A DNA stretch of 64,000 bases from a virus: positions 83,623 through 147,622 of the IMG/VR virus record IMGVR_UViG_3300044644_001125; one strand, given 5' to 3'. Below are positions 1,767-60,585 of the stretch, piece after piece (within the stretch, counting starts at the first letter, position 1; each line of letters starts with the position of its first letter). A program made the position numbers and the translations under genes. The notes below the pieces were generated by a model. That model saw only the letters and a list, made by a program, of their open reading frames with translations, was not told where the DNA came from and did no database searches.

Positions 1767-1839
1767 CTTGTTTACTCCGTAGTGCTTTGTTAAGGTGGGT
1801 ACATTATAGTTGCAATGTACCCAGTTGTCAAGTTATCTT

Positions 1840-2166
1840 TTAGATGAGTTCACCATCTTCGTCAAATTCTGAATCAAAGTCAACGACTTTGTATTCGTCA
1901 TCTGCTGGTATTTCAGTAACAACATAGTTCAAACGGTCACAGTAATGCCAACCACTTAAGATTGGGTTGTTGCCATAGCACATAATTGTCCAAACACGTT
2001 TAGGGTCTGTTACTTTCATCTGGTTGATATATTCTTCTTCCTCACCGTATGTTTCGTATGAGATGCCACCAAAGCTCGCAAATTCTACATCTTCATCTTC
2101 TGGTAAGAAGTGGTTGATTTGTGGTTTGAATTGTTCTTCGAATTGTTCCCAAGATATTGTTTTCAT
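1840..2166 (-). CDS. hypothetical protein
   Basis: 108-aa ORF. Stop codon embedded in CTAAAAGATAA motif. Class-A cassette upstream at 2167-2247. Confidence 0.6.
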   Translation of the reverse strand: MKTISWEQFEEQFKPQINHFLPEDEDVEFASFGGISYETYGEEEEYINQMKVTDPKRVWTIMCYGNNPILSGWHYCDRLNYVVTEIPADDEYKVVDFDSEFDEDGELI

Positions 2167-2247
2167 GTTTTGTTACTCCGTAGTGCTTTGTTAAGGTGGG
2201 TACAGTATAGTTGTTCTGTACCCAGTTGTCAACGATTATCTTTTAGG
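2167..2247 (-). promoter_or_regulatory. class-A early promoter/5'UTR cassette (representative copy)
   Basis: Gene orientation: CTAAAAGATAAT-cg-TTGACA-17nt(IR GGGTACAG..CTGTACCC)-TATACT-CCACCTTAACAAAGCACTACGGAGTAACAAAAC-ATG. Perfect sigma70 spacing. GGAG SD 9 nt before ATG. Confidence 0.7.
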
Positions 2248-4780: not shown

Positions 4781-4851
4781 TGTCTTTACTCCGTAGTGCT
4801 TTGTTAAGGTGGGTATATTCTAAAAGATAATACCCACCGTGTCAATACTTT

Positions 4852-5787: not shown

Positions 5788-5861
5788 GATTATTCCTCGT
5801 AACTAAAATCAATTATTATACGACATTATCTTTTAGTTTTTACCCATTGTCAATACCCTAG

Positions 5862-6309: not shown

Positions 6310-6386
6310 ATTTGTATATTCTAAAAGATAATTGAATCATTGTCAAGCATTATCTTTTAGGGTTGCCGTCCTTGGCAGTGAGTGTT

Positions 6387-10893: not shown

Positions 10894-11142
10894 TTAAGCT
10901 GGGTTAAGTATCTGTAATCCGTAGATTAAATCTTCGTCTGTAATCTCATCGTATGAGAGTATGTATTGTTCGCCATCATCAACTGTATGTACATGAATCA
11001 TCTTATCCTCTGGTGATAAGCCATCAATCACATAATCAACGTCATCTTTTACAATTAAGAATGCTTGTTCGATTAAGGTATTAAGTTGTTCTCTTGTTCT
11101 CATTGGTAGTGCCTCTTTGTTAGTGTAGTGGTATGGTATCAA
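10894..11142 (-). CDS. hypothetical acidic protein
   Basis: 82-aa ORF with AGAGGCACTACCAATG leader. Confidence 0.55.
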   Translation of the reverse strand: MIPYHYTNKEALPMRTREQLNTLIEQAFLIVKDDVDYVIDGLSPEDKMIHVHTVDDGEQYILSYDEITDEDLIYGLQILNPA

Positions 11143-11162
11143 TTATCTTTTAGGTTGTCAAC

Positions 11163-12806: not shown

Positions 12807-12832
12807 GTAGTGCCTCTGGGTTGGTTAGGTTA

Positions 12833-12857: not shown

Positions 12858-12868
12858 ATGTATGTTGT

Positions 12869-18859: not shown

Positions 18860-18882
18860 GCGAGGCACGCTAGTGCCGAGCC
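18860..18882. repeat. GC-hairpin element (GCGAG-gcac-gcta-gtgc-CGAGCC)
   Basis: Covarying stem variant. Confidence 0.6.
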
Positions 18883-20663
18883 TAGTCTTCGTCATCCTCG
18901 TCGTCATATTCATACAAGTACTCTTCATCCCCATACTGAACACTATCGTATCTATGATCAGAACCATCGAAGTAATCTGTACCCCAAGAGTCACGATGGC
19001 GTTTAGCATAACGTTCGCGTTCCTCCTTAATGGCTCGCATCTCTGGTTCAATTAATGAATCATCAATATCCGATTCAATGATCCGAGTAGTATTACCACG
19101 TGACAATTCATATTCCTGTTCACGTATGACTAATCTATGAATGGCAACCTTACGGTCATTATCCTCAACTCTAGGACCAACCATCGCAGTATACCCAGTA
19201 AGTTTCTCACCCACTAACTTCCAATATGGCATACCAAACGCTGTTTTGATACGCAACTCGATCTCCTGCAGATCATCAAATGCAATCTTATTTCGCACAA
19301 TGAACGCGTCATGCACACCGATTAGTATCTCATGTCCCATAGTTTCCGCAATCGATGTAGCACTAGTCATGATCGCAGTCTCAGCATGCTGGTACAAGTA
19401 AGCCATCTCTTTGGCCTTATTACGACACCCTTTGTCTGTTTTAGTACAGGTTAACGGAGCCAATATACTTTTATTCTTCTCTAGGATAAACTCAGCTAAC
19501 TCCATATGCTCATGGATAAATCCACTAATCAAATCATGATTCAAAAATGCATCACGAATTTCATTATCTTTTAGGATAACACCTAACGAATTAACCAATG
19601 GATTGTCTGGATCTTTTGGGTTGGGTATGACAATCCCGAATACCTTCGCACCAAAAGATATGGCATTCATCATAGCCTTGATCTTTTTACGACACCACTC
19701 AGGATCATACCGGTGAACATTACCCGCTTTGTCTTTGTAAGTACGGCATAAGAACACGTGCTTCAAACAGTCCTGTATAAAGTCTTCCTTATCTGTCAGG
19801 TAATGATTAGTATACTGGAACCTTTCTGGTTTTACTTCTCGGTTATACGCAGCTGCATAACTATACTTCCAGGCAATGGATGAAGAACTGATATCATACT
19901 GCCATGAATCACCCAATACATTCTTACGCATTTCCCTTGGGATGTTATGCATCGATAACCCAACATAATACAATCGGCCAAATACACTCTGCTTCTTCCG
20001 CTGGAACCAATACCCATCACCTTTATGTGCTAGGGCCAAGATCATCTTAGCCTTACGTATATAACTCTTGCGTTGGTCCTCATCCAACTTAGTACTGTCA
20101 TAGATAAGCCAATTCAAGTAATTAGTTAACGTTGTAGTATTAACTTCAATTGGGTGAAACATCGCTAAACAATCATCAGCTGACATTAATCCCTGACTTG
20201 CATATAAAACCTCTGGATATTCCCTGTAGAATAAATCATCATACATTTCATTATCAAGGAAATCATCAGTCTGGATGTTAAGTTGTTTTTCTTCGTATTC
20301 TTCTAGGCTCATGTCAAATAGATCTGTGTAAGTACAACGGTTGTCAATTAGGGAGATAGTAGATTTTACCTTCTGTAAACTATTACCCATGTTTAGAACT
20401 TTTATGATTGGCTTATTATCTTTTAGCCAGGAATGAACTCGTACCTTCTTACCTTTCGAATCGGTAATTCTCCCACCGGTATCATGTAATACCTTCATTG
20501 GGATCTGATACTGACTATACGCAGTACATGCGTAATCGTTTGTAATTGATATATGTATCAAGTTAGACAAGACCTTAGAATACTTCTCAAGTGCTTTATC
20601 TACTGATTTTTTAGAAAACTCCGCATACATTGCTTCGTACACAGACTCGTGGATTTCGATCAT
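18882..20663 (-). CDS. large hypothetical protein with poly-acidic C-terminal tail
   Basis: 593-aa ORF, the largest in the window. Ends YEYDDEDDED. Contains GVHDAF and RNKAK..Y segments of uncertain meaning. AGGAAGAATAAG-ATG SD. Confidence 0.7.
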   Translation of the reverse strand: MIEIHESVYEAMYAEFSKKSVDKALEKYSKVLSNLIHISITNDYACTAYSQYQIPMKVLHDTGGRITDSKGKKVRVHSWLKDNKPIIKVLNMGNSLQKVKSTISLIDNRCTYTDLFDMSLEEYEEKQLNIQTDDFLDNEMYDDLFYREYPEVLYASQGLMSADDCLAMFHPIEVNTTTLTNYLNWLIYDSTKLDEDQRKSYIRKAKMILALAHKGDGYWFQRKKQSVFGRLYYVGLSMHNIPREMRKNVLGDSWQYDISSSSIAWKYSYAAAYNREVKPERFQYTNHYLTDKEDFIQDCLKHVFLCRTYKDKAGNVHRYDPEWCRKKIKAMMNAISFGAKVFGIVIPNPKDPDNPLVNSLGVILKDNEIRDAFLNHDLISGFIHEHMELAEFILEKNKSILAPLTCTKTDKGCRNKAKEMAYLYQHAETAIMTSATSIAETMGHEILIGVHDAFIVRNKIAFDDLQEIELRIKTAFGMPYWKLVGEKLTGYTAMVGPRVEDNDRKVAIHRLVIREQEYELSRGNTTRIIESDIDDSLIEPEMRAIKEERERYAKRHRDSWGTDYFDGSDHRYDSVQYGDEEYLYEYDDEDDED

Positions 20664-21134
20664 CTTATTCTTCCTATGGTTTGTGTTACCAGTTCTCTGA
20701 TCAAACCACCCCTAATTCGGTTGGCCAACCTAGCTAGGGGTTTAAGAAAAATGATTATGATCAATCGAACTTTTAACTCATGTATTTAGTACAGGACCTC
20801 CATTATCTTTTAGTCGAATTAATACTATCACAGCCATAACCAATCAGTCAACTAATATATCTAAAAGATAACTTCATTAATAGTTCAATTATCTTTTAGT
20901 GATATAGACCATCAATAGTTCAATTATCTTTTAGTGATATCTCCAATTGCTCGATGGATTTCTTGTGCAATTACTAGAGGGATTCTGAGGAGAATCCAGG
21001 AGAAGAAGCAAAGACCAAGGAAGCCACCAAAGGCATAAGGAGAAGATCAACAAATCTCTTCTCCCTTAGGGAGACACTTTTTCGGTCTGCAGGCCGCATT
21101 CTATATATACCTGATTATGACAGTTATGTTACAA

Positions 21135-34520: not shown

Positions 34521-34748
34521 TTAATTGTCAATGCTTCGTACTGGGATAATTGTATGCGTTTCTGTAGTCCAATTGTCATTGATGTCTTCATCATACCAAT
34601 AACCGTCTTCATTTGTCATTATAACAAGCGACGTCAGGCATTCTTCACATGTGGGTAATCTCCAACCATCACCTAAACAAAAACAATACAAGACTGCTTC
34701 TGTGATGGTACCCTCTTTCCACAATACTCTAGGTGCTATTTCAATCAT
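34521..34748 (-). CDS. DUF1566-like small protein (degenerate)
   Basis: MIEIAPRVLWKEG..LYCFCLGDGWRLPTCEEC..IIPVRSIDN. Confidence 0.55.
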   Translation of the reverse strand: MIEIAPRVLWKEGTITEAVLYCFCLGDGWRLPTCEECLTSLVIMTNEDGYWYDEDINDNWTTETHTIIPVRSIDN

Positions 34749-34965
34749 CTTTTAGATCTCGTACTGGGGCAAGCAACCAGTTACCTTTACTGGGTCTGGG
34801 TCTACCAATATACCAACAACCCATTAATTGATCGTTACCATACCATTCATCTTTGGTTGGTAATCTCCATCCAGTCTTACCATCTATATTCAACAAAAAG
34901 CAATACATAATTGCTTCCTCGTAAGATAGTCTTAATTCACGGTCAATTGGTGCTATCTCAATCAT
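34741..34965 (-). CDS. DUF1566-like small protein
   Basis: Start moved to MIEIAPIDREL; the longer six-frame ORF lacks family features upstream. Confidence 0.55.
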   Translation of the reverse strand: MIEIAPIDRELRLSYEEAIMYCFLLNIDGKTGWRLPTKDEWYGNDQLMGCWYIGRPRPSKGNWLLAPVRDLKDD

Positions 34966-35203
34966 CGTCAGGTACCTCGCGAACAGGTTGTAAAAAGTAA
35001 ACGTCATCAGGATTGTACCACTGTTTACGGTCAACGTACAACCAATCACGGTCAACGTACCACCAATCACTGTACATTTCGTATAGTAAGCATTCATCCA
35101 AGGTTGGAAAACGCCAACCATCAGCTAGGCAAAACAGGTAGAATTTTGCATCTTCGTAAGTTACTCTTGTTGTGGTTGGCTTACCCATTTCTAATCTAAT
35201 CAT
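34958..35203 (-). CDS. DUF1566-like small protein
   Basis: Start moved to MIRLEMGKPTT. FYLFCLADGWRFPTLDEC..LQPVREVPDDD. Confidence 0.5.
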   Translation of the reverse strand: MIRLEMGKPTTTRVTYEDAKFYLFCLADGWRFPTLDECLLYEMYSDWWYVDRDWLYVDRKQWYNPDDVYFLQPVREVPDDD

Positions 35204-38158: not shown

Positions 38159-38194
38159 GACTAAAAGATAATTGAAGTTAGTTTCGATTATCTT

Positions 38195-38527
38195 TTAGCA
38201 ATCCCGCACTGGTCTAACTAGGGTAGTATTCACGTATTTGTCATCCCAAGTGGTGTGCATGTCAACCAGCAGTGGCATCGCAAGCCACGCACATCCTGAG
38301 TAATCAACATGCTCCTCGCTGGACCAGTATCTAGGATACTTCCGATAATTCATTGTCTGGGTATGTTCCGAAGTGATTAACCCTCTTGACCCAAGCCAAT
38401 GCAATTCTCGCATCGTTGGTAATCTCCAACCAACCTTTCCATCGATGTTCAACGAAAAACAATACAAACGGGCTTCATCCCATGCGAGTGCTTTGATGTA
38501 TTCTAATGGTGCAAGTTCTATGTTCAT
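38195..38527 (-). CDS. DUF1566-like protein (long variant)
   Basis: Start moved to MNIELAPLEY. LYCFSLNIDGKVGWRLPTMREL..LVRPVRDC. Confidence 0.55.
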   Translation of the reverse strand: MNIELAPLEYIKALAWDEARLYCFSLNIDGKVGWRLPTMRELHWLGSRGLITSEHTQTMNYRKYPRYWSSEEHVDYSGCAWLAMPLLVDMHTTWDDKYVNTTLVRPVRDC

Positions 38528-42180: not shown

Positions 42181-42217
42181 GTTTGTATTTATTCACTAAA
42201 AGATAATCAACCCAACT

Positions 42218-42282
42218 AGCTCGAGCCTATCGGCTCTCGCAAATTCACATAACCCAACAAGCTCGGCACTAACGTGCCTCGC
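42218..42282. repeat. pair of GC-hairpin elements downstream of HNH cassette
   Basis: agctcgagcctatcggctctcgc and gctcggcactaacgtgcctcgc. Confidence 0.6.
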
Positions 42283-42354
42283 AATCAACAATTCAACCTA
42301 TATTATATCACATCTAACATAACCACCCAATAAATACCTATAGGTACTAAAACT

Positions 42355-47759: not shown

Positions 47760-47809
47760 TGTTTGTAATTATAACTTAAAGATAATTGATGTCAAGTTCA
47801 TGATTGATT

Positions 47810-47935
47810 GCGAGGCCTGATAGGGCCGAGCCTAATGTTAATGCGTTATTTGCTCTTCTTGATTAATGTAATTACTTGCGAGGCCTGATAGGGCCGAGCC
47901 TTGCTGTATTTTGCGAGGCCTGATAGGGCCGAGCC
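47810..47935. repeat. three tandem GC-hairpin elements (GCGAG-gcc-tgatag-ggc-CGAGCC)
   Basis: Copies at 47810-47832, 47878-47900 and 47913-47935, directly upstream of HNH gene. Confidence 0.65.
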
Positions 47936-48071
47936 TTTGTTTAGGTAGATTCTATTATCTTTTAGAAAGGTTGTCAAGAGGTTTTCTTAGTGGAAGGATA
48001 AATAAGGGTGTAACTCGCGGATGGCCGTCCCAGTTACTCTAATGCTTTCAATCTTACAGGAGAACATCAGC

Positions 48072-49137: not shown

Positions 49138-49178
49138 AACAAAAGCCAGTAGACTCAACATCCACTGGCTTTTCTATT
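49138..49178. terminator. bidirectional rho-independent terminator
   Basis: AGCCAGT-12nt-ACTGGCT flanked by A-run and TTTCTATT. Confidence 0.6.
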
Positions 49179-49183
49179 ATCTT

Positions 49184-50386
49184 TTAGTCTGTATAGTGAA
49201 CGGTTTGTCCATACGAAGCGGTAGCGGATTCATTACCGAATACGATAAACAATGTATCCACTAGTTCACCGATGGCTGGCACCTCGTCGCTCACATACAG
49301 GTCAGTAAAATTAAGGAGTTTTTTAGGGCTTAGATTATTCTCTTTTAGGTATTCTAAAATACATCTATAATCTGTGCCACCACCACCAACTGGTTCATAA
49401 GTTAACAAATCACCAGCATTGTCATGCGTAATTAAAATTGGATTGTAAATGTCAACATCATAACAGAATAAATGAATTTTATAATCAGTATACTGACTCA
49501 TGATACCAGAGATCTCACCTAAGAATATAGAGATTTCGTTTTGTCCAATAGATCCACTCATGTCTAAAGCAATTGCAATGTCAATCGTTTGTTCTGGAAT
49601 CATACCAGGTAGAATAGCTCCAGATGCCCAACCTTTACGACTAGGTCTACTGAATGAATAGTTACTACGAACAATCGATTGAATGTTCATCTGTAATAGT
49701 TCACGCCAATTCATTTTAGGTTCAGTCATATCTTGAATCAGTCTTTTAATAGCAGCAGGTACATTACCAGCGGCGGCCGCATGTGCTTGGACCATCGCTT
49801 CTTTCAAAGAATCTCTGATCTCCTGCCATTCTGCTTTTGAAAACTTAGGTCTACCGCTACCTTCTTTACCATCTTCGTCGCCGTCGCCATCACCGCTATC
49901 ATCTTGAGAGAGGTGGTCGTCTAATGAATCCATGCCTGCGAGTATGTCATCGAGTGACACTACGGTCGCGTTTTCAATAAGTAATTCGTAGATCTCCTCC
50001 CAAGATTTTCCACGATAGACTGGATCCAAGCACAGAGGAACTTGATCAATAACCGTTCCAATCTTTTCATCTACGAGCAGTATGTTTATGGCGAAATCTT
50101 GGGCTATATTTGACAACCGAGCATCTCGTGAGCCACGCCGCAAAAAATGTTCAAAACAAATGTGAAGAATCTCATGACCGAATAAGAATTCAAGTTGTTT
50201 AACTGATAGTTTTTCAACGAATTCGGTGTTGTAATAGAAGTCTTTCCCATTAGTGGCCGCCGTTTGGCACCACGAACTGCTCTCCACAAGTTTCATCCGA
50301 GATGCCAAATTACCAAAAAAGCTAGCCCGTAGCATGAGACCGATGCGAGCAACCGTGAGTTTTTCTTCGATGGGAGTTAGTAACAT
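49184..50386 (-). CDS. vWA domain protein with N-terminal HExxH (DUF2201-like) domain; partner of MoxR ATPase
   Basis: FGHEILHICFEHF. C-terminal MIDAS IDIAIALDMSGSIG. Acidic linker. Confidence 0.7.
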   Translation of the reverse strand: MLLTPIEEKLTVARIGLMLRASFFGNLASRMKLVESSSWCQTAATNGKDFYYNTEFVEKLSVKQLEFLFGHEILHICFEHFLRRGSRDARLSNIAQDFAINILLVDEKIGTVIDQVPLCLDPVYRGKSWEEIYELLIENATVVSLDDILAGMDSLDDHLSQDDSGDGDGDEDGKEGSGRPKFSKAEWQEIRDSLKEAMVQAHAAAAGNVPAAIKRLIQDMTEPKMNWRELLQMNIQSIVRSNYSFSRPSRKGWASGAILPGMIPEQTIDIAIALDMSGSIGQNEISIFLGEISGIMSQYTDYKIHLFCYDVDIYNPILITHDNAGDLLTYEPVGGGGTDYRCILEYLKENNLSPKKLLNFTDLYVSDEVPAIGELVDTLFIVFGNESATASYGQTVHYTD

Positions 50387-50615
50387 AATGTATATTCCTG
50401 TTGTTTAGTTGTTAAGGTGAGTGTATTGTAGCTAAAAGATAATTGACTGTCAAGTTGTTTCTAAAAGATAACTAAAAGATAATTGATTCATAATGCACCA
50501 TATACTAAAAGATAATTGGTATATCTGGGACCTAAAAGATAATTGACTGTCAAGATGTTTCTAAAAAATAACTAAAAGATAAGGTACCCATAATACAAAT
50601 CCAAGAATACCAAAT
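50387..50615. promoter_or_regulatory. array of 9 CTAAAAGATAA(T/C) motifs with overlapping divergent TTGAC boxes
   Basis: Minus orientation: TTGACAGTCAATTATCTTTTAGC-TACAAT promoter for 49184-50386, with the motif inside the spacer. Palindromic TTGACTGTCAA x2. Confidence 0.5.
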
Positions 50616-50831: not shown

Positions 50832-50895
50832 GTTTGAAGCCTCTATATAATTGAAAAGACTAAAAGATAATCCCTCATCTTTTAGTCTATAAAGT

Positions 50896-52323: not shown

Positions 52324-52406
52324 TGTAATCTCGCTTTTGAAGTTAATGTTAAGGGTTTTTGTAAATCAGGTTGTAGTTTAAATCTAAAAGATGATGTTGT
52401 CAATCT
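52324..52406 (-). promoter_or_regulatory. type-B-spacer promoter (TTGACA-ACATCATCTTTTAGATT-TAAACT)
   Basis: The 12-mer in reverse orientation occupies the -35/-10 spacer. The same promoter repeats at 52674-52760. Confidence 0.5.
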
Positions 52407-52673
52407 TTATTTTAGAGTTTTTGAAATCTTTTCTGCTGGAATGCTCCATTCTTTCATTGTTCCATTATCAAATGTATTCTTTACGTAAGCAAAGAAACGT
52501 TTTTGCAATGCAGGATCCAACGAGTCCAATTTTTGTCTGGCGCTTGGAATGTCAATTATTTCTGATTTAAGCAACGCGGACCAAGAAATAGAAAGATCTC
52601 GTAGTTCTGCATCGGTAAATTCAGATGCATTGTTTTCTGGTATGATTAAAGAATCGATAATGTCAGTAGTCAT
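52407..52673 (-). CDS. hypothetical protein
   Basis: 88-aa ORF with identical promoter to MoxR gene. Confidence 0.5.
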   Translation of the reverse strand: MTTDIIDSLIIPENNASEFTDAELRDLSISWSALLKSEIIDIPSARQKLDSLDPALQKRFFAYVKNTFDNGTMKEWSIPAEKISKTLK

Positions 52674-53023
52674 GATATTTACTCCAGTATTAATGTTAAG
52701 TGTAGTTTAAATCTAAAAGATGATGTTGTCAAGTATTTAATTTGGTTCGTTTCATCTTGGGTTACATTCTATTCCTAAAAGATAATGCTGTCAAGTGTTA
52801 TTTTCTAGGTTTCTCGTCTCGGTGACGATGTGGCTATTATAGACTAAAATTAGATGTTGTCAACAGTTATTTTCAAAAAGTTTTCTAAACTGTTATTCAA
52901 TTATCTTTTAGGTCAATACTGCCAACCACGAAACGAATCATACACTATAGGTATATAGGTGTCAACTGACTTTAAATAAAATCATACTAAATACAATATA
53001 TCATTACCACTTGAACTAATAAA
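52674..53023. promoter_or_regulatory. non-coding region with four CTAAAAGAT(G/A)ATG(T/C)TGTCAA repeats preceding tnpB
   Basis: Copies near 52713, 52774, 52838 and 52900 (the last inverted). Confidence 0.4.
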
Positions 53024-54360
53024 ATGACCAGCATCATCAAAACCAGTCAACATAGTACCAAGTTTGCCAATACAGGCAAGCAGGATATATTGTCTGAATT
53101 TTTAACCGAATATGATAGAATGATATGGTGGTTTGTTGATTACTTATGGGAAACTAAGATCGTGTGGGGATTAAATCAAGTACTAGACGTGAAGAATAAT
53201 CGTTTAGATGTACCTAATTTTATCAATACCGCAGATATAGAATACCATTCCGATTTATCAGCTAGGGCTATAAAATTAGCATCTAGCGAAGCTCTCGCGT
53301 TAGTCAAAGGGCAAACAGAAAAAAGAAGAAAGCAATTCCACGTTCTAGCTAAAAACATGAAAATGGGAACTGTCGGAGAGGTTAAACGACTTCAATCAAA
53401 AATAGATAGCAATCCTCTCACAAAACCAACTACTAATTCCAAAAACCCAAGTGCTAGACTCGATAGTATGTGTTGCAAGTACATACCAACAGAATCGTCA
53501 ATATTCGATGGATGGCTTAAACTCAAATCGATTGGTAAGGTATACGGTCATATCTTCATTCCAATTAAGTTAACCAAACATTCTAATAAGTTAGCCAAGA
53601 AAGGATATTCGATGATGACAACTTGGCGCATTTGTAATAATGTGGTTTCTTCGACTTGGCAAATTGAAAGAAAACCAAGCAGTGGAACTAAAGTTTTAGG
53701 CGCTGACCAAGGAATTAGTACGTGTCTATCACTAAGCGATAGTCAGACCACTGGGGTTTGTAAACATGGACATGATTTAAAATCAATTATAAATAAGCTA
53801 TCAAAAAAGAAAAAGGGTAGTAAGGCTTTTGCTAAGGCACAAGCCCATAGAACCAATTATATCAATTGGTCAATTAACCAATTAAACCTACAAGATGTCA
53901 AAGAACTCAGGCTTGAAAAGTTATTTCAGATGAGGAAGGGTCATAATATAGGTAAACTATTAAGTCATTGGACTTACACACAAATCAATGCACAGATAAA
54001 AAGCAGATGCGAGGAACTAGGCGTCCTAGTTACCGAGCAATCCGCTGTTTATAGAAGTCAGAGATGCAGTGATTGTGGTTGGACGCAGAAATCAAATAGG
54101 AAGGGAAAGGAGTTTATATGCAAGTCATGTGGCCATCACATCGATGCGGATATAAATGGCGCCCTTAATCACGAAGTGGACTTATATCCGCTCCCTATGG
54201 GATTTCGTCATTTGAATATGAATAGAAAAGGTTTCTTTTGGTATGAAACCCAGCTATTCGATTCAACTGGTCAGGAGATTACAGTCCCTGACGTGAAAAA
54301 TATATAACTGTCAACCTTTTTCATAAGTATTAACATTGTATAACTGTCAATCGTTTTACG
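52940..54360 (+). mobile_element. putative TnpB-only IS element (IS1341-like); ends not defined
   Basis: tnpB on opposite strand to flanking backbone genes. TATAACTGTCAA direct repeat at 54304-54352 downstream of stop. Confidence 0.35.
53024..54307 (+). CDS. tnpB: IS200/IS605-family TnpB (OrfB) RNA-guided nuclease homolog
   Basis: C-terminal zinc finger CSDCGW..CKSCGH. RuvC-III IDADINGALN. 427 aa. No adjacent tnpA. Confidence 0.8.
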   Translation: MTSIIKTSQHSTKFANTGKQDILSEFLTEYDRMIWWFVDYLWETKIVWGLNQVLDVKNNRLDVPNFINTADIEYHSDLSARAIKLASSEALALVKGQTEKRRKQFHVLAKNMKMGTVGEVKRLQSKIDSNPLTKPTTNSKNPSARLDSMCCKYIPTESSIFDGWLKLKSIGKVYGHIFIPIKLTKHSNKLAKKGYSMMTTWRICNNVVSSTWQIERKPSSGTKVLGADQGISTCLSLSDSQTTGVCKHGHDLKSIINKLSKKKKGSKAFAKAQAHRTNYINWSINQLNLQDVKELRLEKLFQMRKGHNIGKLLSHWTYTQINAQIKSRCEELGVLVTEQSAVYRSQRCSDCGWTQKSNRKGKEFICKSCGHHIDADINGALNHEVDLYPLPMGFRHLNMNRKGFFWYETQLFDSTGQEITVPDVKNI

Positions 54361-54953
54361 TGATTTAATTTCGTAGTATGATCCACATTGACTGATTTGA
54401 TACTAGCATCAATATGATAGTGACCGTCTATAAACTCACGATTCCAAAATTCAACTAAGGTTTCACCTAGGATGGCTGTGACTTTATACTTACGATAGTT
54501 CTCGTTATAAACACAAGACACAACGGTAATCGTATCTATAACTTTATCACCAACATGGCCTGGTAAGGTTAGATAGGGTGTCATATCAACTGTTTGTCGT
54601 ACCAAATCCATTTGCATTACCATTGGTAGACAAGCAACGACCGAAAACTCAAAAAGATGATGGCTTGTAAATGTATCCATTTGAGCAATCTTTAGTGCTA
54701 GGTGTTGGAATTCTGATATGGTACCTGCGATTTCTAGGAACAGGTATCCTTTGATATGATTACGGCAATCGATAGCGGCTTGGTAGTCTTCATCGGTTGC
54801 TGGAATCTTATTCGTATAAAGCCATTGTTTGATTAGGGCTTTATTTGAAAGACGTGGAGATTCTGAACTCCATTCGTCTGAATTTTGAAGATACTCTCCA
54901 TTGATTCGTTGGGCGGCGATAGCAGCTGCCCAAACTTGTTCGGCCTTGAACAT
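54330..54953 (-). CDS. hypothetical protein
   Basis: 207-aa ORF. Confidence 0.55.
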   Translation of the reverse strand: MFKAEQVWAAAIAAQRINGEYLQNSDEWSSESPRLSNKALIKQWLYTNKIPATDEDYQAAIDCRNHIKGYLFLEIAGTISEFQHLALKIAQMDTFTSHHLFEFSVVACLPMVMQMDLVRQTVDMTPYLTLPGHVGDKVIDTITVVSCVYNENYRKYKVTAILGETLVEFWNREFIDGHYHIDASIKSVNVDHTTKLNHVKRLTVIQC

Positions 54954-55031
54954 TCCATCTACCTCCTTTACTTGATGTATACTAGTATTTACCAGTTTTT
55001 TGGAGGTAGTGTGGTTGGATTGTGGTATTTT

Positions 55032-55877
55032 TTAATGTTTCATGATGGTAACATGAGCCATCTTTTGCCAAGTATCCGCAAATGACTTTTTAAGGTCTGC
55101 TGCTTTGAGAACTGTTCTAATGGATAATTCTCTTAGCTTGTCTGCATTACTCATAACAAAATGAACGATTTCGTCTTCGTGATGGGTTGGGAATTCATAG
55201 TCATCTAGTAGACCATCACTTACGATTTGTTTGATTCTAAGAATACGTTCATGTTGGGTATTCATCTTTAAGTCAATAAAGTGGCATCTTGATTCTAAAG
55301 CAGCCAAATGTTCTTGTAGCTTTTTGCTTTTGATAGAACCAAACTGGACATTAGTAATAAAGATAACACCTGCTTTAAACTCAAATCTTTCTGGGATGTG
55401 TTCACGTCTTAAGAGGTGACTATCGGTATTCCAGCTGACCCATCGTCTTTTAGAAGTATCTAAACAGGCTTTAACGATGTTAAGTGAAACTTCATCCATG
55501 AAGATACCATCAGCATCATCGAATACTAAAACATTACCTTCACCGCTGTATTCGTAGAGTTTACGGTATAAGCCCAATGCACTGATAGCACCTTTAATGA
55601 TTTCGTATTTTGGTTTTCTGTTGGCGATGGTATCGAACAAGTCTTGTTTAGAAAGGATATTCTCGACCCCAAAACTCTTGCCAACTCCTGGTGGGCCTGT
55701 GACAATTAAGGCCCTGATGTTGCCATCTTTTACTGCGGTGGTCATGTGGTCAAGAACTTCAAATCGTTCTCTGATTCTGGTGATGATTTGTTCGTCGGTT
55801 TCGGTTTCTGTAATTTTCATGTAATTGTCCTGTGATGTAGTAAATGTAAGTATATTTGATTTTGTAAGTAATGTCAA
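55032..55877 (-). CDS. AAA-family ATPase
   Basis: Walker A IVTGPPGVGKSF. Walker B VLVFDDADG. 281 aa. Confidence 0.65.
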   Translation of the reverse strand: MTLLTKSNILTFTTSQDNYMKITETETDEQIITRIRERFEVLDHMTTAVKDGNIRALIVTGPPGVGKSFGVENILSKQDLFDTIANRKPKYEIIKGAISALGLYRKLYEYSGEGNVLVFDDADGIFMDEVSLNIVKACLDTSKRRWVSWNTDSHLLRREHIPERFEFKAGVIFITNVQFGSIKSKKLQEHLAALESRCHFIDLKMNTQHERILRIKQIVSDGLLDDYEFPTHHEDEIVHFVMSNADKLRELSIRTVLKAADLKKSFADTWQKMAHVTIMKH

Positions 55878-56065
55878 TCTTTAGTATTTACGATTTCACA
55901 TTTTATTTTCCAGTTACCGAATACTAGGTCATGGTCGTTTGGCACGTCATAACCTTCCTGATTTGCTTTTTCTACCATCGCATCGACAAGATACTTGAAT
56001 ATTGGATCTGGCATCTTGGCAATATCCTCTCTTGTCAATGCGATTTTGACAGGTAACTTCTTCAT
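55874..56065 (-). CDS. hypothetical small protein
   Basis: 63 aa. 4-nt overlap with the AAA ATPase gene. Confidence 0.45.
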   Translation of the reverse strand: MKKLPVKIALTREDIAKMPDPIFKYLVDAMVEKANQEGYDVPNDHDLVFGNWKIKCEIVNTKD

Positions 56066-56382
56066 CTGCAGTCGCGTTTGTAGTAATTTGAGTTGCGATT
56101 TAAAATAATGTATTCATCACACTCACGTTGTCTCCAAGTTTCAACATAGTTAAACTCTTCTTGTCTACGCATTTCGCGTTCACGTTGTAGTTCATAGTTG
56201 AATCTTAGTTCATCCATCTCACGTTGATTCGCTAGTTCTCTATGCAATTCTAAATTGTATTGATAGATAGCATCTTTAGGTGTACCGTATGGTACTGTTT
56301 CTGAGTAGAAGTAAGTACGTTCACCTGCGATAGATGCGGTTGAAGCTACTAATAAGGTCAATGCTGCAATTTTTGATTTCAT
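56062..56382 (-). CDS. secreted charged/coiled small protein
   Basis: Signal peptide MKSKIAALTLLVASTASIAG. Arg/Glu-rich. Confidence 0.5.
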   Translation of the reverse strand: MKSKIAALTLLVASTASIAGERTYFYSETVPYGTPKDAIYQYNLELHRELANQREMDELRFNYELQREREMRRQEEFNYVETWRQRECDEYIILNRNSNYYKRDCR

Positions 56383-56497
56383 TTTTTTCTCCTGGTTAAA
56401 AGTACGATGGCAGAATACTAATATTCTGCCATTTTGTCAACCTTTAGTTGATATAATTGATACCATCAACGCTAGTATTACTGAAAGTGCCAGATAA

Positions 56498-56941
56498 CTA
56501 AGCATATTCTAATACGTCCGATACGGAAACCCAATCATCACTATCAGCAACATAGTACATCCAACCACGTTTTACGCGAACGTAGACATGTTTACTACCA
56601 CGGTGCTTTGTATAGAAATCTTTAAGTTTATCTGCGTTAAAGAATTGTTCGCTGGTCAACTCGGTATCACCTAAGTCACGACCATAGAACGTTGTTTCAT
56701 CAGGTACTGGTGTTTCAATCCCTTGAACTTTCGTTGTTGGAATTACGGTTTCTGCTGTATGGATTGAACCGATGGTAGCACCTAATTCATAGACATCACC
56801 GTATCTAACTAGTGTATTTGAACGTACACAGTCGTAGTATTTGTCTAAAATAGCACCTACGTTTTCGGGTTCACCGTTTTGGTGAACGTAAATCCCTACA
56901 AACATATCCCCCTGTTGCACACCAATTGCACAAGCTGTCAT
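56498..56941 (-). CDS. paralog of 4370-4780
   Basis: Shared TTFYGRDLGDTE motif. Confidence 0.55.
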   Translation of the reverse strand: MTACAIGVQQGDMFVGIYVHQNGEPENVGAILDKYYDCVRSNTLVRYGDVYELGATIGSIHTAETVIPTTKVQGIETPVPDETTFYGRDLGDTELTSEQFFNADKLKDFYTKHRGSKHVYVRVKRGWMYYVADSDDWVSVSDVLEYA

Positions 56942-56959
56942 CTTTTCTCCTACTGGAAG

Positions 56960-57265
56960 TTAATTACAAAAAACATTTGGTGATGCTGTTATGATGACTG
57001 CATCATAAGGTCCATCACCGATCTTATCACCGAGTCTCGCGGTGTGTCTGTTGGTACTGGTATTACCAGATGCCGTTATAATAATACTGGTATGTCCACA
57101 ATCTGTTTCAACTGTATCACCTAATCTAGCAACTTTTCGATTATTAGCAGATACGTTACCGGATGCAGTAATAATCTTGCCAGTTGTTTCAATTGGTGAA
57201 GCATGTGACGAATGTGAACAAGTACCTTGTGTTGTATCGCCTAGTCGTGCTACGCCTCTAGCCAT
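56960..57265 (-). CDS. PAAR-repeat spike-tip protein (T4 gp5.4-like)
   Basis: Three VARLGD / ITASGN(V/T)S repeats; 101 aa. Confidence 0.75.
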   Translation of the reverse strand: MARGVARLGDTTQGTCSHSSHASPIETTGKIITASGNVSANNRKVARLGDTVETDCGHTSIIITASGNTSTNRHTARLGDKIGDGPYDAVIITASPNVFCN

Positions 57266-57909
57266 TAGATTGAATCCAGTTCGCCTAAAACACTTGGGTC
57301 AAAACCAGTATCAGCCAATGCTGCACTTGAAGCACCTGCTGAACCCAATGCTTTATCTGCAGCTGCTTTGATACTTGCTTCTGCTGGGAATGGGTCTTCT
57401 GAAGTCATGGAATCAATCATATCAGAAACACCACCACCGATTACTGAGGCTGCGCCCATAACCAACGAACACCCTCCAGCTATTATAGCACGAACTGCTT
57501 TACCAAGTACAGAGGCCATATCATCAATCACACCAATGATATCTGAGATAACTGATTTCAATTTGTTAATTGCACCAGTAATCATCGATCCAATCTTGGA
57601 AATGACTTCATTTATTTTGGCAATAGCTGCACTGGCTAGTTCACCAATTTTAGCCATGAATTCTTGAACTTTACCAGCAACATTTGCAATCATGTCGGTG
57701 ATACCCTTCATCATAGAACCAATCTTAGCCATTGCGTCGGTAATACCTTTTTGAATATTGGCAAACATAGCAGACGTCTCGGCACTAACCATAGTGCCTA
57801 ATGTTCCGAATATATCACATCCACTACCGGCTTTTGCAGTGAGTGAATCCATATCAGCTGACAACGCTTTTGTTGCAACTGACATATCTGGTAAACCTGG
57901 AATACTCAT
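57265..57909 (-). CDS. Ala/Gly/Ile-rich repetitive protein (possible baseplate/ejection component)
   Basis: Repeats AKIGSMMKGITDMIANVAGK / ISKIGSMITGAINKLKSVIS. Shares stop/start junction with PAAR gene. Confidence 0.55.
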   Translation of the reverse strand: MSIPGLPDMSVATKALSADMDSLTAKAGSGCDIFGTLGTMVSAETSAMFANIQKGITDAMAKIGSMMKGITDMIANVAGKVQEFMAKIGELASAAIAKINEVISKIGSMITGAINKLKSVISDIIGVIDDMASVLGKAVRAIIAGGCSLVMGAASVIGGGVSDMIDSMTSEDPFPAEASIKAAADKALGSAGASSAALADTGFDPSVLGELDSI

Positions 57910-58364
57910 TTGGTCTCCCTCGTTAAAATTTGTTTAATTTTGAAAATGTCATCGGATGTTATACCCGTATGATCGTTTGTTCTGACAAACCGTGATTTTT
58001 GATATGGTAAGAACTCGTCAATATCATCGATTATCGCATAGTTGTAATCTTCTGCCTTAGAACATAACCACTTTTCTATCTCGTATCCACGTCGATATCT
58101 ATTCAATCCAGCATCCATAATACCATTTATTGGAGTTGTATCGATAATACGCGTTCTACAATGAAAACCGGTACGGTAAAGTAATTCCTTTATTTCAGCC
58201 AACGTGTGTATGACGCGCCATGATGAACTGATAACTACCTGGCAATCTAACTCGATGCACAAGTTTCTAACCATGATAACCTTTTCTGGACAAAGGTGAA
58301 TACCTTCAGCCAAGGATGCGGTATTGTTTAATACCCCGTCAAAATCCAGGAATATTAAGTTCAC
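57906..58364 (-). CDS. HAD-like hydrolase (5'-nucleotidase/phosphatase-like)
   Basis: N-terminal MNLIFLDFDGVLNN (DxDG motif I). Confidence 0.5.
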   Translation of the reverse strand: MNLIFLDFDGVLNNTASLAEGIHLCPEKVIMVRNLCIELDCQVVISSSWRVIHTLAEIKELLYRTGFHCRTRIIDTTPINGIMDAGLNRYRRGYEIEKWLCSKAEDYNYAIIDDIDEFLPYQKSRFVRTNDHTGITSDDIFKIKQILTRETK

Positions 58365-58612
58365 TTGGTTAAGCTATCAAGTAGCTTTTGCAATTGGGAA
58401 TTTACAGTTTTGGTTTCTAATACGAACTCACGGTATTCGTCAATTAACTTACGTTCACGGTTTAACGTTTCGAGGATTTGCACTCGTAATTCTGTATTAA
58501 TATCACATTGTTTCATGATAGATGAAATTGACAAAGCATAACCAACCAACATCGAAACCACCGAAATAACAGCATATAGTATCATAGTGCAATCCTCAAC
58601 CGATAGCATCAC
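58361..58612 (-). CDS. small membrane protein
   Basis: N-terminal TM helix; 83 aa. Confidence 0.45.
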   Translation of the reverse strand: MMLSVEDCTMILYAVISVVSMLVGYALSISSIMKQCDINTELRVQILETLNRERKLIDEYREFVLETKTVNSQLQKLLDSLTK

Positions 58613-58812
58613 GCTTCAGTTTCCACTTCTTCAGCAAAGAAGTCGGGCATTTCTAATGCCGCACGATGTAAGTCATAAGTACTTGGATAATGACGTAAAA
58701 TGCTTCTAGCACGTGCTACTACGTCTTTGTTCATGTTTGGTCGAGTGCTGATATCTTTCAAGAATTGCCCAGCCATTTGGACTGCGCGATATCTTTCATC
58801 TGGTGATGTCAT
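58609..58812 (-). CDS. hypothetical small protein
   Basis: 67 aa; 4-nt overlap. Confidence 0.45.
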   Translation of the reverse strand: MTSPDERYRAVQMAGQFLKDISTRPNMNKDVVARARSILRHYPSTYDLHRAALEMPDFFAEEVETEA

Positions 58813-58878
58813 ATGTTGATCCTCTGTTGTTTGTAAAATCTTAGTTTACCGGAATTGGTATGCCTTGTCAACAACTTT

Positions 58879-59037
58879 CTATGCTTTAGTTACAGCGCCT
58901 TGTACGCCAGATAAAGCCAATACAACTGCAATAATAGCTTGTGATTGGTCTGCTGTGTATAAGTTATATGCTGCACCTAGTGATACCAAAGAAACCCAAG
59001 TTGATGGTTCTTTTAATCTAGCTTTGATGTATTCCAT
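58879..59037 (-). CDS. small two-TM membrane peptide (holin-like topology)
   Basis: Start at MEYIKARL after TAGGAGATTTTAAA-ATG. A competing plus-strand ORF overlaps. Confidence 0.35.
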   Translation of the reverse strand: MEYIKARLKEPSTWVSLVSLGAAYNLYTADQSQAIIAVVLALSGVQGAVTKA

Positions 59038-59125
59038 TTTAAAATCTCCTAAAGTTGACAACCGTATTTATCAATTTTTAGGAAGTTGATATTTAGGTTT
59101 TAGGCGTGAAGTACGAGGTTTAAAG

Positions 59126-59152
59126 CCGAGGAGGGCTGATCGCCCTCCTCGG
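59126..59152. other. GC-rich 11-bp-stem hairpin (CCGAGGAGGGC-tgat-CGCCCTCCTCGG)
   Basis: Strong hairpin downstream of 59275-59514. No clean U-tract, so terminator status uncertain. Confidence 0.4.
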
Positions 59153-59274
59153 AACAATTCAAGTTGATTTGCATATCTAAAAGATAATCGTAATAATCTT
59201 CAAGTTCAGATTGAACATCCGGTATGTACTCATTTTTTAATTGATGAGAACCGCCTTTTCCCATAATGCTTGGA

Positions 59275-59613: not shown

Positions 59614-60585
59614 ATGAGATTGTACGAATTAAAAGAATCCCAATACACCCGAGATGAGTTACTAGAACTTGACTGGGATGAGCTATGCGAAATGGCCTAT
59701 GGAGTCAAGACAGGTGATATTATCCAACTTGATCCACGAAAAATCAAAATCAAATATACTGATATGGAAAATCCACAGGACTTATTCAACAAGTATGGAA
59801 TGGCTTGGGTTCGTACTGTTAAATTTGATGAGCCAGTTCAGGTATCTCTAGGATTGGATGGGAATCATACTAAAGAAGATTGGTATTTAGAAGATGGGCA
59901 TCACCGAGTATTCGCTGCTCGTAAACTAAAAATGCCAACTATCACCGCTGAAGTGGAACGCATTAACTTAAAAGCGGTTGAGAAGTTACTTGGATTTCCC
60001 AATGCGAAAAAACGTCGTATCAAAGAAGATGAAGATTATCGCGGTGAGCATACCGCACCTTATAATAATGGATATGATAGACCGTTACATGATTTGACTG
60101 GTATCTATCCAGATGATATCTACACGAGTAATGCTGCTAGATTATATAGTTCAGGTGAATCTTACGACAATGCAAGTATTAGTATCATGCAAGGTGCGCG
60201 TGGTAGACCTAATCAAGCAATTAAAATCTACCGCGCCGTACCTCACGAGTTAACCAACGATGAATTAATCAAAAAGTATGAAAAAGAAAAAGCTCTGATG
60301 CTTAAAACTGGTAGACTTCCAACTGGTATCACTGGTTATACGAAAAGTCAGTACTACGAGTTTGTATCCAATGAGCTAGATCGATTAGCTAATGCACCTG
60401 CCACTGCTGCTACCAAAATAGGAATCAATCCAGGTGATTGGGTTTCTATTTCTAAGCAGTATGCTATTGATCACGGTAGAGCAAATCTTGGTAACAAGTT
60501 TAAAGTTATCACCAAGACTGTTAAAGCAAAAGACTTGTACACCGATGGTAACTCGATCCATGAATGGGGCTATTCCCCAATGTAA
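59614..60585 (+). CDS. ParB/sulfiredoxin-domain (ParB-like nuclease) protein
   Basis: WYLEDGHHRVFAARKL contains the DGHHR ParB N-domain motif. 323 aa. Confidence 0.65.
   Translation: MRLYELKESQYTRDELLELDWDELCEMAYGVKTGDIIQLDPRKIKIKYTDMENPQDLFNKYGMAWVRTVKFDEPVQVSLGLDGNHTKEDWYLEDGHHRVFAARKLKMPTITAEVERINLKAVEKLLGFPNAKKRRIKEDEDYRGEHTAPYNNGYDRPLHDLTGIYPDDIYTSNAARLYSSGESYDNASISIMQGARGRPNQAIKIYRAVPHELTNDELIKKYEKEKALMLKTGRLPTGITGYTKSQYYEFVSNELDRLANAPATAATKIGINPGDWVSISKQYAIDHGRANLGNKFKVITKTVKAKDLYTDGNSIHEWGYSPM

Follow-up and report, generated by a model that had tools for sequence, protein, structure and literature searches.

A hyper-abundant asymmetric 12-mer as a putative regulatory site in DNA of an uncultured phage

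Introduction

Upstream of a DUF2201/vWA gene in a 64-kb stretch of viral DNA (the window, meaning the whole stretch that was analysed), one short word, CTAAAAGATAAT, is repeated in close succession, and copies of it recur across most of the remaining sequence. What such a word is for, and what might read it, is the question addressed here. The initial annotation had proposed a single phage DNA-binding protein that activates one set of genes from copies abutting the -35 box and represses another from copies within the promoter spacer, with an alternative promoter element or a nicking or modification site as fallbacks.

Of the roughly 135 ORFs in the window (38% G+C), 112 lie on the minus strand; the majority of the ORFs are small and have no assigned function. 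Besides a MoxR-type ATPase and the DUF2201/vWA protein (Table 1), it encodes a GroES homologue, a glycosyltransferase, a caspase-like protease and both HNH and GIY-YIG endonucleases, and it also holds a TnpB-like ORF (53024-54307) and 13 Lcl_C-domain paralogues. Its MoxR protein shares 52% identity with the counterpart in PA5oct-type Pseudomonas jumbo phages, and a protein identical to the 234-aa HTH_18 protein of the window is recorded on a 327-kb contig; the window is therefore a fragment of an uncultured jumbo phage, the genome of which probably measures about 330 kb. The nearest cultured relative, PA5oct, relies on host RNA polymerase throughout infection and uses TTGAC/TATAATA promoters (PMC7318152). 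The promoter set of the window fits this pattern.

Abundance, form and placement of the 12-mer

The exact word CTAAAAGATAAT is present 50 times in the 64-kb window, against an expectation of 0.02, and 84 copies are counted when up to one mismatch is allowed, against 1.07 expected. None of 100 dinucleotide shuffles reached either 50 exact or 84 near-exact copies, so that the more than 70 occurrences initially reported are borne out and are not explained by composition. The density amounts to about 1.3 copies per kb. The consensus is CTAAAAGAT(A/G)A(T/C), with nearly all variation confined to position 10 (A/G) and position 12 (T/C) and with positions 1 to 9 nearly invariant. Information content falls to about zero in both flanks, which makes the edges sharp at 12 bp, and internal symmetry is absent.

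Most copies lie outside the interior of genes. Among the 84 sites, 45 are intergenic, 17 lie across an ORF edge and 22 fall fully within predicted ORFs, so that 62 (74%) lie between genes or at ORF edges in a window of which 86% is coding. The copies previously placed within coding regions were all recovered, the coordinates first given for them being approximate (Table 1). Relative to the nearest gene, 44 copies have the same and 40 the opposite orientation, so there is no strand bias with respect to transcription. In at least 11 cases the upstream gene ends in the TAA of the 12-mer, as a by-product of the stop codons that the 12-mer has in two of its three forward frames. Since one of the three reverse frames is also closed, the reading frame of the coding copies is uninformative.

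Paired copies are mostly convergent. Within 40 bp of one another, the window has nine convergent and no divergent pairs, and convergent pairs overall number about 11, accounting for 22 of the 84 copies (about a quarter), most copies being single. Relatives contain a few divergent pairs, and the convergent arrangement is therefore a preference and not a rule. Only one close pair, which forms a 14-bp hairpin followed by TTTCAATTAT, scores as terminator-like, and Rfam and tRNA scans of the window returned a single tRNA-Met, so the 12-mer is not a known RNA family. Near 20.9 kb, where a direct duplication had been noticed, a four-copy cluster includes a unit of about 29 bp that is repeated at a spacing of 35 bp. 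The span 52911-59177 has no copy at all.

An optional module at strong promoters

Strong promoters were defined as TTGACA and TATAAT hexamers separated by 16 to 18 nt and with at least 10 of 12 matches. By this definition the window has 89 distinct sites, 80 of which are on the minus strand, where dinucleotide shuffles give about 17.5 for each strand. Copies of the 12-mer, 34 in all, touch 28 of the 89 sites (about a third), while the other 50 copies touch none. The promoter-touching copies occupy at least eight registers: 13 are forward and upstream of the -35, 19 lie in the spacer or on the -10, and two are reverse and upstream of the -35. Their offsets from the -35 are tight (0-2, 2, 4 or 8 nt). 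As the initial annotation had it, forward copies abut the -35 from upstream, 12 of them ending 0-2 nt ahead of TTGACA at about -37 to -50, and reverse copies are found in the 17-nt spacers of the promoters of the MoxR gene (52384), of ORF 52407-52673 (52713) and of the vWA gene (50432). The division into two promoter classes does not survive the full count of registers, since four strong promoters (and one weak) hold an upstream forward copy and a spacer reverse copy together, the two being 26-28 bp apart in the strong promoters and bracketing the -35, and more than half of all copies touch no strong promoter.

Around the promoter, the 12-mer sits in a conserved cassette of about 95 bp. Many homologous cassettes in the window are devoid of it, among them the one upstream of ORF 8317-8517; their -35, their ACCTTAACAAAGCACTACGGAG leader and the covarying stem over their -10 are the same, and A-rich tracts stand at the place of the 12-mer. 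The distance from the 12-mer to the start codon varies. UP elements, the A/T-rich tracts at -40 to -60 bound by the C-terminal domain of the RNA polymerase alpha subunit, have one orientation and lie upstream of the -35 alone, whereas only 13 of the 84 copies are forward and upstream of a -35, and the fixed orientation and distance to genes that mark phage middle or late promoters are absent, given the 44:40 split and the variable distance to the start codon. Variable register, use in both orientations, optional presence and conservation as DNA together characterise an operator rather than an element contacted by the polymerase.

Whether such an operator would act in two opposite ways depends on how these positions are read. 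If forward copies abutting the -35 activated, through class II-like contact with sigma or alpha, and spacer copies repressed, the 12-mer would constitute a temporal switch. The precedent is clear, as MarA, SoxS and Rob work as activators at forward sites between -36 and -55 and as repressors at spacer sites (PMC12052159), and both the tight 0-2 nt offset of the twelve forward copies and the presence of HTH_18 proteins in the window are in keeping with it. Nevertheless, promoters with an upstream copy are near-consensus (10-12 of 12 matches), are no weaker than the motif-less ones and show no sign of needing an activator, upstream and spacer copies occur together on four strong promoters, and the 12-mer abuts an intact TTGACA, whereas typical class II sites overlap the -35. 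We consider a dual activator and repressor unlikely. From the original proposal of one DNA-binding protein serving two gene sets, what gains indirect support is that the 12-mer behaves like a protein site; the clean classes do not.

Table 1. Positions in the window of 12-mer copies, promoters and genes referred to in the text. Offsets are in nucleotides.
Feature	Position	Strand	Remark
Forward copy, 0 nt before -35 of TTGACA-17-TATAAT	1832..1843	-	TAA is the stop of ORF 1840-2166; 4 copies end 0 nt before -35
Same 0-nt forward register as 1832	12635, 13131, 14645
Forward copy, 2 nt before -35	2235..2246	-	8 copies end 2 nt before -35
Same 2-nt forward register as 2235	3035, 3692, 6349, 7155, 8009, 8309, 17512
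Forward copy, end 9 nt before -35			1 copy
Forward copies within spacer			2 copies
Forward spacer copy, start 2 nt after -35	11142..11153	-
Forward copy, start 6 nt after -35	47954-47965
Forward copy with own GATAAT as -10, 17 nt after TTGACA	5825..5836	-	likewise 9321-9332; 2 copies use own GATAAT as -10
Reverse copy, start 8 nt after -35	4820..4831	+	the -10 TAGAAT begins with its TAG; 9 copies
Same 8-nt reverse register as 4820	2598, 3007, 6321, 6670, 7981, 11444, 15596, 17484
Reverse copies, start 2, 3 or 4 nt after -35			5 copies
Reverse copy, start 18 nt after -35			1 copy, over -10 and downstream
Reverse copies upstream of -35			2 copies
Convergent pair around one -35, CTAAAAGATAAT-N16-ATTATCTTTTAG	6321..6360
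Same -35-bracketing pair as 6321	3007/3035, 7981/8009, 17484/17512		weak promoter: 29868/29895
MoxR-ATPase promoter TTGACA-ACATCATCTTTTAGATT-TAAACT, 17-nt spacer	52375..52403	-	reverse copy 52384-52395, 2 nt after -35
Promoter upstream of ORF 52407-52673	52704..52732	-	reverse copy 52713-52724, 2 nt after -35
Further tandem promoter TTGACA-17-TAGAAT	52766..52794	-	reverse copy 52775-52786, 2 nt after -35
Array of 7 copies, one orientation	50432..50583	+	reverse relative to the minus-strand DUF2201/vWA gene
Array copy starts	50432, 50461, 50472, 50505, 50532, 50561, 50572		50561 is CTAAAAAATAAC (2 mismatches)
Proximal DUF2201/vWA promoter TTGACA-GTCAATTATCTTTTAGC-TACAAT	50425..50453	-	one copy in 17-nt spacer
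Distal cassette, TTGACA with spacer 12-mer	50525..50553	-	TCCCAG in place of -10
DUF2201/vWA protein	49184-50386
MoxR-type ATPase	51238-52323
Copies within coding regions	19563, 20415, 10321, 45297		19563 intragenic, not conserved in relatives
Copy in 593-aa ORF, frame L-K-D-N	20415..20426	-	kept in L129 at 66% local identity
Further intragenic copies conserved in relatives	9535, 10321, 10441
Conserved copy, probably intergenic	24088		sole overlapping ORF 23962-24216 (+) looks spurious
Four-copy cluster (20802-, 20861+, 20888-, 20923-)	20802..20934		upstream of 593-aa ORF 18882-20663
Close convergent pair, terminator-like	50857..50888	-	14-bp hairpin, then TTTCAATTAT
Other close convergent pairs	428/443, 10441/10457, 44610/44626
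Convergent pair filling gap between two convergent genes	38161..38198		36-bp gap
Single copies at two more convergent gene junctions	41822, 49176
Candidate reader 1, 234 aa	23279..23983	-	C-terminal AraC-type two-HTH; HTH_18 residues 141-217
Candidate reader 2, 200 aa	22149..22751	-	HTH_18 residues 115-190, 44.5 bits, above Pfam cutoff

Conservation among relatives

A search of deposited phage genomes for near-identity over 8 kb gave no match, and exact-string and paired-motif scans of IMG/VR retrieved nothing but the contig of origin, IMGVR_UViG_3300044655_001269. A paired-motif scan of metagenomes recovered about 35 motif-rich contigs from freshwater, with 66-98% identity to the window, one of them (L129) having 25 copies in 13.4 kb. 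Conservation of the 12-mer was measured on alignments with relatives below 92% identity (66-92% identical). In these, the 12-mer columns are 95% identical and the flanks 80%, and the 12-mer is perfect in 58 of 87 site-by-relative pairs, compared with 19% expected from other 12-mers of the same alignments and coding class; none of 20000 simulations reached this value, a significance that is overstated because the relatives are not independent of one another, the effect still being large. Copies inside ORFs follow the same trend, being perfect in 12 of 20 pairs versus 14% expected. Individual sites have been both gained and lost between relatives.

The 12-mer is absent from 80 IMG/VR loci of phages whose MoxR is 61-74% identical, all of which have the same layout of strong promoter, conserved leader and small genes. 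No equivalent hyper-abundant word resembling an operator module was found in these MoxR-selected relatives, in which the most frequent k-mers correspond to the -35 with its flank, to leader sequences or to a coding repeat. Conservation above both flanks and other 12-mers, combined with absence from the more distant relatives, places the 12-mer, as DNA, under purifying selection that is specific to this clade.

The array upstream of the vWA gene

The locus from which the question arose is the array at 50432-50583. The copies are interleaved with a palindrome, as had been described, and number seven rather than nine. Two 100-bp direct repeats make up the array, each with a TTGACTGTCAA palindrome. 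In the proximal unit, read on the coding strand, a tandem reverse pair with an 11-bp period is followed after 7 nt by TTGACA, GTCA, a reverse copy, C and TACAAT, and then by the leader and the ATG of the vWA gene; more copies lie farther upstream of the tandem pair. In the relative L119, the unit equivalent to the distal one is an intact promoter (with TACAAT) ahead of a 127-aa ORF that is absent from the window, and the proximal unit has three extra 33-bp repeats with one copy each. Because the distal unit is intact in L119 and drives the extra ORF, the array consists of two copies of one multi-site promoter cassette and is not a dedicated origin-like structure. Either the window lost a gene that lay between the two cassettes, which joined them, or L119 gained one that set them apart.

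Repetition of cassettes of this kind raises the prospect that the 12-mer has no dedicated reader and is carried along as an UP-element-like A-rich tract that happens to supply stops and -10 fragments, recombination spreading the cassettes and inverted pairs acting as RNA or DNA hairpins (terminators or processing sites). The location of the 12-mer inside the conserved cassette of about 95 bp, the A-rich sequence of motif-less cassettes at the same place, and the cassette copies that flank gene gain or loss between the window and L119 all speak for such a passenger, as do the one terminator-like pair and the 22 of 84 copies in convergent pairs. In addition, AAAAGATAA matches seven of nine positions of the proximal UP subsite consensus. 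We give this account a low probability, since it leaves unexplained the exact conservation of 12 bp between flanks of zero information, the conservation of copies in unrelated ORFs above the neighbouring codons, and the use of forward and reverse copies at eight registers. Nor does it explain the excess of convergent over divergent pairs, as hairpins form either way, and most copies are unpaired.

Same-orientation arrays with periods of 11, 27-35 and 100 bp, which occur both in the window and in relatives (L119, L147), could alternatively be an origin or centromere, and the dispersed copies could serve replication, partition or genome organisation as protein sites of the Noc/ParB or DnaA-box type, or could be a mark of 'self'. 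A protein with a ParB C-terminal domain is encoded at 59614-60585 and an AAA+ protein with a weak HTH at 55032-55877, and copies do lie in ORFs and at promoter-less gene ends. The tight offsets from the -35 argue instead for a link to transcription, the array resolves into two promoter cassettes that each stand ahead of a gene in L119, and ParB sites are normally palindromic. The AAA+ protein was considered as a DnaA-like reader and set aside, because its family (phrog_1250) is widespread among phages, its resemblance is to clamp or helicase loaders, and its distribution does not follow that of the clade-specific 12-mer. A primary role in DNA metabolism is accordingly regarded as improbable.

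Two fallbacks of the initial annotation fare worse still. That the 12-mer is a middle or late promoter element, of the -10-only type, for a phage-modified or phage-encoded polymerase is very improbable: it does contain a -10-like GATAAT, is twice the -10 of a sigma-70 promoter and often lies directly upstream of genes, but its orientation is unbiased (44:40) though 112 of 135 genes are on one strand, reverse copies in sense promoters would fire antisense, the distance to the start codon is not constant, and PA5oct uses host polymerase throughout infection (PMC7318152). Equally slight is the chance that a site-specific enzyme nicks or modifies the 12-mer or homes to it, for which several HNH and GIY-YIG endonuclease genes and a glycosyltransferase are at hand, as the 74% intergenic or edge placement, the fixed offsets from promoter hexamers and the purifying selection are unexpected for enzyme targets, which are usually avoided or randomly placed.

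Candidate readers

Pfam scans covered all 135 ORFs of the window, and the only clear DNA-binding domains among them are those of two HTH_18 (AraC-type) proteins (Table 1). The 234-aa protein scores 30.1 bits, just below the Pfam cutoff, and two reverse copies of the 12-mer lie upstream of its gene (24088, 24213). Counted from the ATG used in other assemblies, the 200-aa protein is 197 aa long. It is a paralogue of the 234-aa protein, to which it is 28% identical (E = 3e-24). An AlphaFold model of the 234-aa protein has a pLDDT of about 90 over residues 70-234, and its approximately 105 C-terminal residues match AraC-family DNA-binding domains, including 3oio (TM 0.83), AdpA-DNA, SoxS, MarA-DNA and Rob-DNA. 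The model establishes that the AraC-type two-HTH fold is present in the window; it is evidence for the fold and not for binding of the 12-mer.

The distribution of both proteins parallels that of the motif. The two families are confined to the clade (6 and 31 homologue clusters among 5.8 billion proteins), and every contig encoding an HTH_18 homologue of 61-76% identity carries the unchanged 12-mer at high density. Such co-occurrence is weak evidence, because any clade-specific gene would co-occur with the motif. Single-protein searches of IMG/VR for loci of the two HTH_18 proteins found none. Among divergent members of the 234-aa family the DNA-binding half is the more conserved (68% vs 40%), and nearly every aligned member keeps the second recognition helix, SKAGFRSAF. 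The 200-aa family shows no such excess of conservation in its DNA-binding half over the remainder. In two relatives (L148 and L149) a reverse copy lies 8-10 nt ahead of the start codon of the 200-aa homologue. Taken together, these observations make the two AraC/MarA-type proteins the best candidate readers of the 12-mer, in a manner that is suggestive only.

One property of the motif counts against a reader of this type. The contacts of AraC-type domains usually span 15-20 bp, as two blocks separated by one helical turn, and the 12-mer is 12 bp long and has no conserved flanks. The true reader may lie elsewhere in the genome, because the window represents 64 kb of about 330 kb, or it may be a host protein. 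RNA-guided targeting by a TnpB/TldR system was also considered for the TnpB-like ORF 53024-54307 and set aside: the conservation of a guide-plus-TAM target would extend far past 12 bp, and the 12-mer-free span 52911-59177 includes the 3' end of this ORF.

A putative clade-specific operator

The 12-mer is probably a protein-binding regulatory site. It is discrete and asymmetric, is used independently of orientation, is mostly intergenic, occurs at variable registers and is conserved above its flanks, all of which is the behaviour expected of such a site. We infer protein binding, and with it the identity of the protein and the sign of its regulation, from the observed statistics, geometry and conservation of the copies and from the presence, fold and clade distribution of the candidate proteins.

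The most economical model would be that the 12-mer serves as the operator of a sequence-specific DNA-binding protein from a clade of uncultured freshwater jumbo phages, in which host RNA polymerase would transcribe many small phage genes from strong sigma-70-type promoters. The 12-mer would be an optional module on about one-third of these promoters, placed upstream of the -35, in the spacer or as part of the -10. A protein bound at most of the promoter-associated positions would be expected to occlude RNA polymerase, and the most likely role would be a coordinated shut-off or throttling of a promoter subset. Repression is the most economical reading because more than half of the promoter-associated copies would sterically exclude the sigma-70 holoenzyme. 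Occlusion of promoters is unlikely to be the whole story, since only about a third of the strong promoters carry the 12-mer and 50 of the 84 copies touch none; copies at gene ends, at convergent junctions and in ORFs could be roadblocks or insulators. The readers would be the products of ORFs 23279-23983 and 22149-22751, whose fold reads asymmetric sites as monomers and in either orientation. Counted against an operator are the 22 of 84 copies in inverted pairs, which could act as hairpins. The model in full, that is, a clade-specific and mainly repressive operator with an HTH_18 reader, is put forward tentatively, with a chance that we place slightly short of even.

Comparison with known systems

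In kind, the 12-mer resembles the dispersed asymmetric operators of phage regulators, and it is a member of neither the stoperator nor the marbox family. The stoperators of cluster A mycobacteriophages (L5 gp71, TipsytheTRex repressor) are 13-bp asymmetric sites present in more than 20 copies in promoters and short intergenic gaps, where they are bound by a monomeric immunity repressor of a temperate phage that combines an HTH with a stoperator domain (PMC9283540). Like them, the copies of the 12-mer are short, asymmetric and near-identical, are dispersed by the dozen in promoters and short intergenic gaps, often touch stop codons and are clade-specific, and the phage in both cases relies on host RNA polymerase. 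Unlike them, they are split 44:40, whereas the orientation of stoperators strictly follows transcription, which is the defining rule of that family; they are also denser (about 1.3 against about 0.5 per kb) and lie inside ORFs as well. Stoperator phages are temperate, and the window shows no temperate sign, though a 64-kb fragment is too small to judge by.

MarA, SoxS, Rob and RamA are monomeric AraC-type domains with two HTHs that read asymmetric marboxes in either orientation, activating from upstream of or overlapping the -35 and repressing from the spacer (PMC12052159). By position, reverse upstream sites form class I, forward sites at the -35 form class II, and spacer sites bring about repression. 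In the window, forward copies abut the -35 and both orientations occupy spacers; a clear assignment to these classes is opposed by the total of at least eight registers, by the promoters that carry both kinds of copy and by the reverse copies just upstream of the -35 in the array. The marboxes share with the 12-mer their asymmetry, and two proteins of the MarA fold are encoded in the window. They differ in being degenerate and bipartite sites of about 20 bp, with elements about one helical turn apart, whereas the 12-mer is 12 bp long, nearly invariant and sharp-edged; in addition, the phage HTH_18 proteins, unlike MarA, have an extra N-terminal domain of about 130 aa without known relatives. 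Stoperators are thus the closest concept and the pairing of MarA with its marbox the closest protein chemistry.

Two further systems resemble part of the arrangement. The C1 operators of phage P1 are asymmetric sites of about 17 bp, many of them dispersed and some in inverted pairs, that act at many promoters; there are roughly 15-20 in 94 kb of a temperate plasmid-prophage. The 12-mer has in common with them its asymmetry, its dispersal over a large phage genome and the occurrence of some inverted pairs; no homologue of C1 turned up in the window. The promoter-early stem-loops (PeSL) of T4-type phages are mobile cassettes of a strong early promoter and a stem-loop between small early genes. 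Genes are gained or lost between their repeated copies, as is the case for the cassettes of the window when compared with L119. This likeness concerns the cassette only, since the 12-mer is optional in cassettes and is also found far from them.

Significance

Jumbo phages that rely on host RNA polymerase express hundreds of genes in order, by means that are little known. The system described here provides a testable handle on this problem, in the form of one exact 12-mer, two candidate readers and a set of natural promoter variants that have the 12-mer upstream, in the spacer or at both positions, or lack it. Promoter cassettes also emerge, from the alignment with L119, as breakpoints for gene gain and loss. 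In a wider reading, which is speculative and on present evidence unlikely, a lytic jumbo phage would use one monomeric AraC-type protein and several hundred invariant 12-mers, on promoters, at gene ends and within genes, as an orientation-independent, genome-wide layer of control with three functions at once, namely throttling of host-polymerase promoters, insulation of neighbouring transcription units and marking of the phage DNA as 'self'; such a layer would be stoperator-like yet of independent origin, with a different protein fold and different rules. If the operator is confirmed, the promoter, the operator and the protein would form a ready-made orthogonal regulatory toolkit. It would represent a second, independently evolved case of genome-wide control by dispersed asymmetric operators, beside stoperators, and the first such system with an AraC-type reader in a large, lytic-looking phage.

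Architecture of the promoter cassettes

In most early promoter cassettes of the window, the repeated units that place a strong sigma-70-type promoter and a leader before small genes, the -10 is spanned by an inverted repeat (see the table for this and the other features). The arms read GGGTACA/TGTACCC, GGTGATAGT/ACTATCACC or AGCGAGTAGT/ACTACTCGC, and the sequence thus varies between cassettes while pairing is retained, with one instance representing a G-U-compatible change. Because the arms differ and pairing is kept, this pattern suggests a selected nucleic-acid structure, either a fold of read-through transcripts or one extruded from the DNA. In L012, a locus of a related uncultured phage, the cassettes are built alike but from different sequences.

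Cassettes also appear, from the sequence comparison, to be breakpoints of gene gain and loss. In the related contig L119, an additional ORF separates two copies that adjoin in the window upstream of the vWA gene, and three 33-bp repeats, each carrying one copy of the 12-mer (the hyper-abundant word proposed as the operator of a phage regulator), are present 5′ of this gene in addition to what the window contains.

On the opposite strand, a TnpB-like ORF is inserted in the window. The preceding 350 bp (52674-53023) contain four to five sigma-70-type promoters in tandem; every one is directed away from the ORF, and three have the 12-mer within their spacer.

Coordinates of the features discussed (window positions unless a related contig is named)
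Feature	Position	Strand	Remarks
-10-spanning inverted repeat, examples	1790-1831, 12600-12634, 8270-8306, 13520-13586		
Extra 127-aa ORF	L119 2805-3188		between two cassette copies
TnpB-like ORF	53024-54307	+	Cas12f1-like TNB domain, weak OrfB_IS605 match
Doubtful ORFs	12674-13018, 21701-22033, 23962-24216	+	
Lcl_C ORFs, examples	25247-26138, 27735-27986, 29613-29858, 33229-33694, 34521-35121		
25-nt inverted repeat	24058-24082 and 24182-24206		arms TTTTTCTCCCTGTAAAAAGTTGAAA / TTTCAAAGTTTTCCCAGGGAGAAAA; 5′ of 234-aa HTH_18 gene
12-mer array	L147 1860-2260		at least 6 same-orientation copies, 48-79 bp spacing; contig end
TTGCGAGTGCCGATAGGCACGAGCC-type repeats	~9290, ~13900, ~22800-22870, ~25190, ~40300, ~42210-42300, ~47800-48000, ~63500		
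TACCCGCTGTG box	~395-415, ~18190, ~18830, ~21830, ~22008		akin words in relatives L004-L008, L012

Genomic contexts of the 12-mer

Since they overlie minus-strand promoter or intergenic regions, the three doubtful plus-strand ORFs are probably spurious. If so, a few 12-mer copies counted as lying inside ORFs (21755, 24088) would really be intergenic, and the intergenic bias of the word would be stronger. Thirteen small ORFs, at 24.5-35.1 kb and elsewhere, contain an Lcl_C domain. In many, the final residues are PVRDLKD(D/N), and the 12-mer (L-K-D-N/D) is therefore encoded at the C-terminus; several (25845-26138, 27735-27986, 29613-29858) carry a reverse copy 8-9 nt 5′ of the start codon. At 49140-49187 the vWA stop codon lies within a 12-mer, after which the sequence (AGCCAGTGGA...TCTACTGGCT TTTTGTTC) makes a good intrinsic terminator; this 12-mer copy is kept in L119, where both flanks have diverged.

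In contig L147, which encodes a 61% homolog of the 200-aa HTH_18 protein, GGTTACTATT decamer repeats are interspersed among the arrayed 12-mers, an arrangement similar in appearance to iterons. Upstream of the gene for the 234-aa HTH_18 paralog, a 12-mer copy lies 5-6 nt from each arm of the inverted repeat. Palindromes of sequence TTTTCCCTATAGGGAAAA are located immediately 5′ of -35 boxes in the related contigs L148, L149 and L155. The inverted repeat and these palindromes may constitute a second operator, perhaps that of the other HTH_18 paralog.

Further repeats and a candidate regulatory box

A second repeat family, TTGCGAGTGCCGATAGGCACGAGCC and its variants, occupies longer intergenic regions of the window in both orientations, frequently paired, and could represent hairpins resembling REP elements or terminators. 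Several window genes without a sigma-70 promoter are preceded by a TACCCGCTGTG box, and the akin words CCCCGCTGCGG/CAGCGGGGCC are over-represented in distant relatives. The box may serve the whole family as a phage-specific promoter or as a regulatory site.
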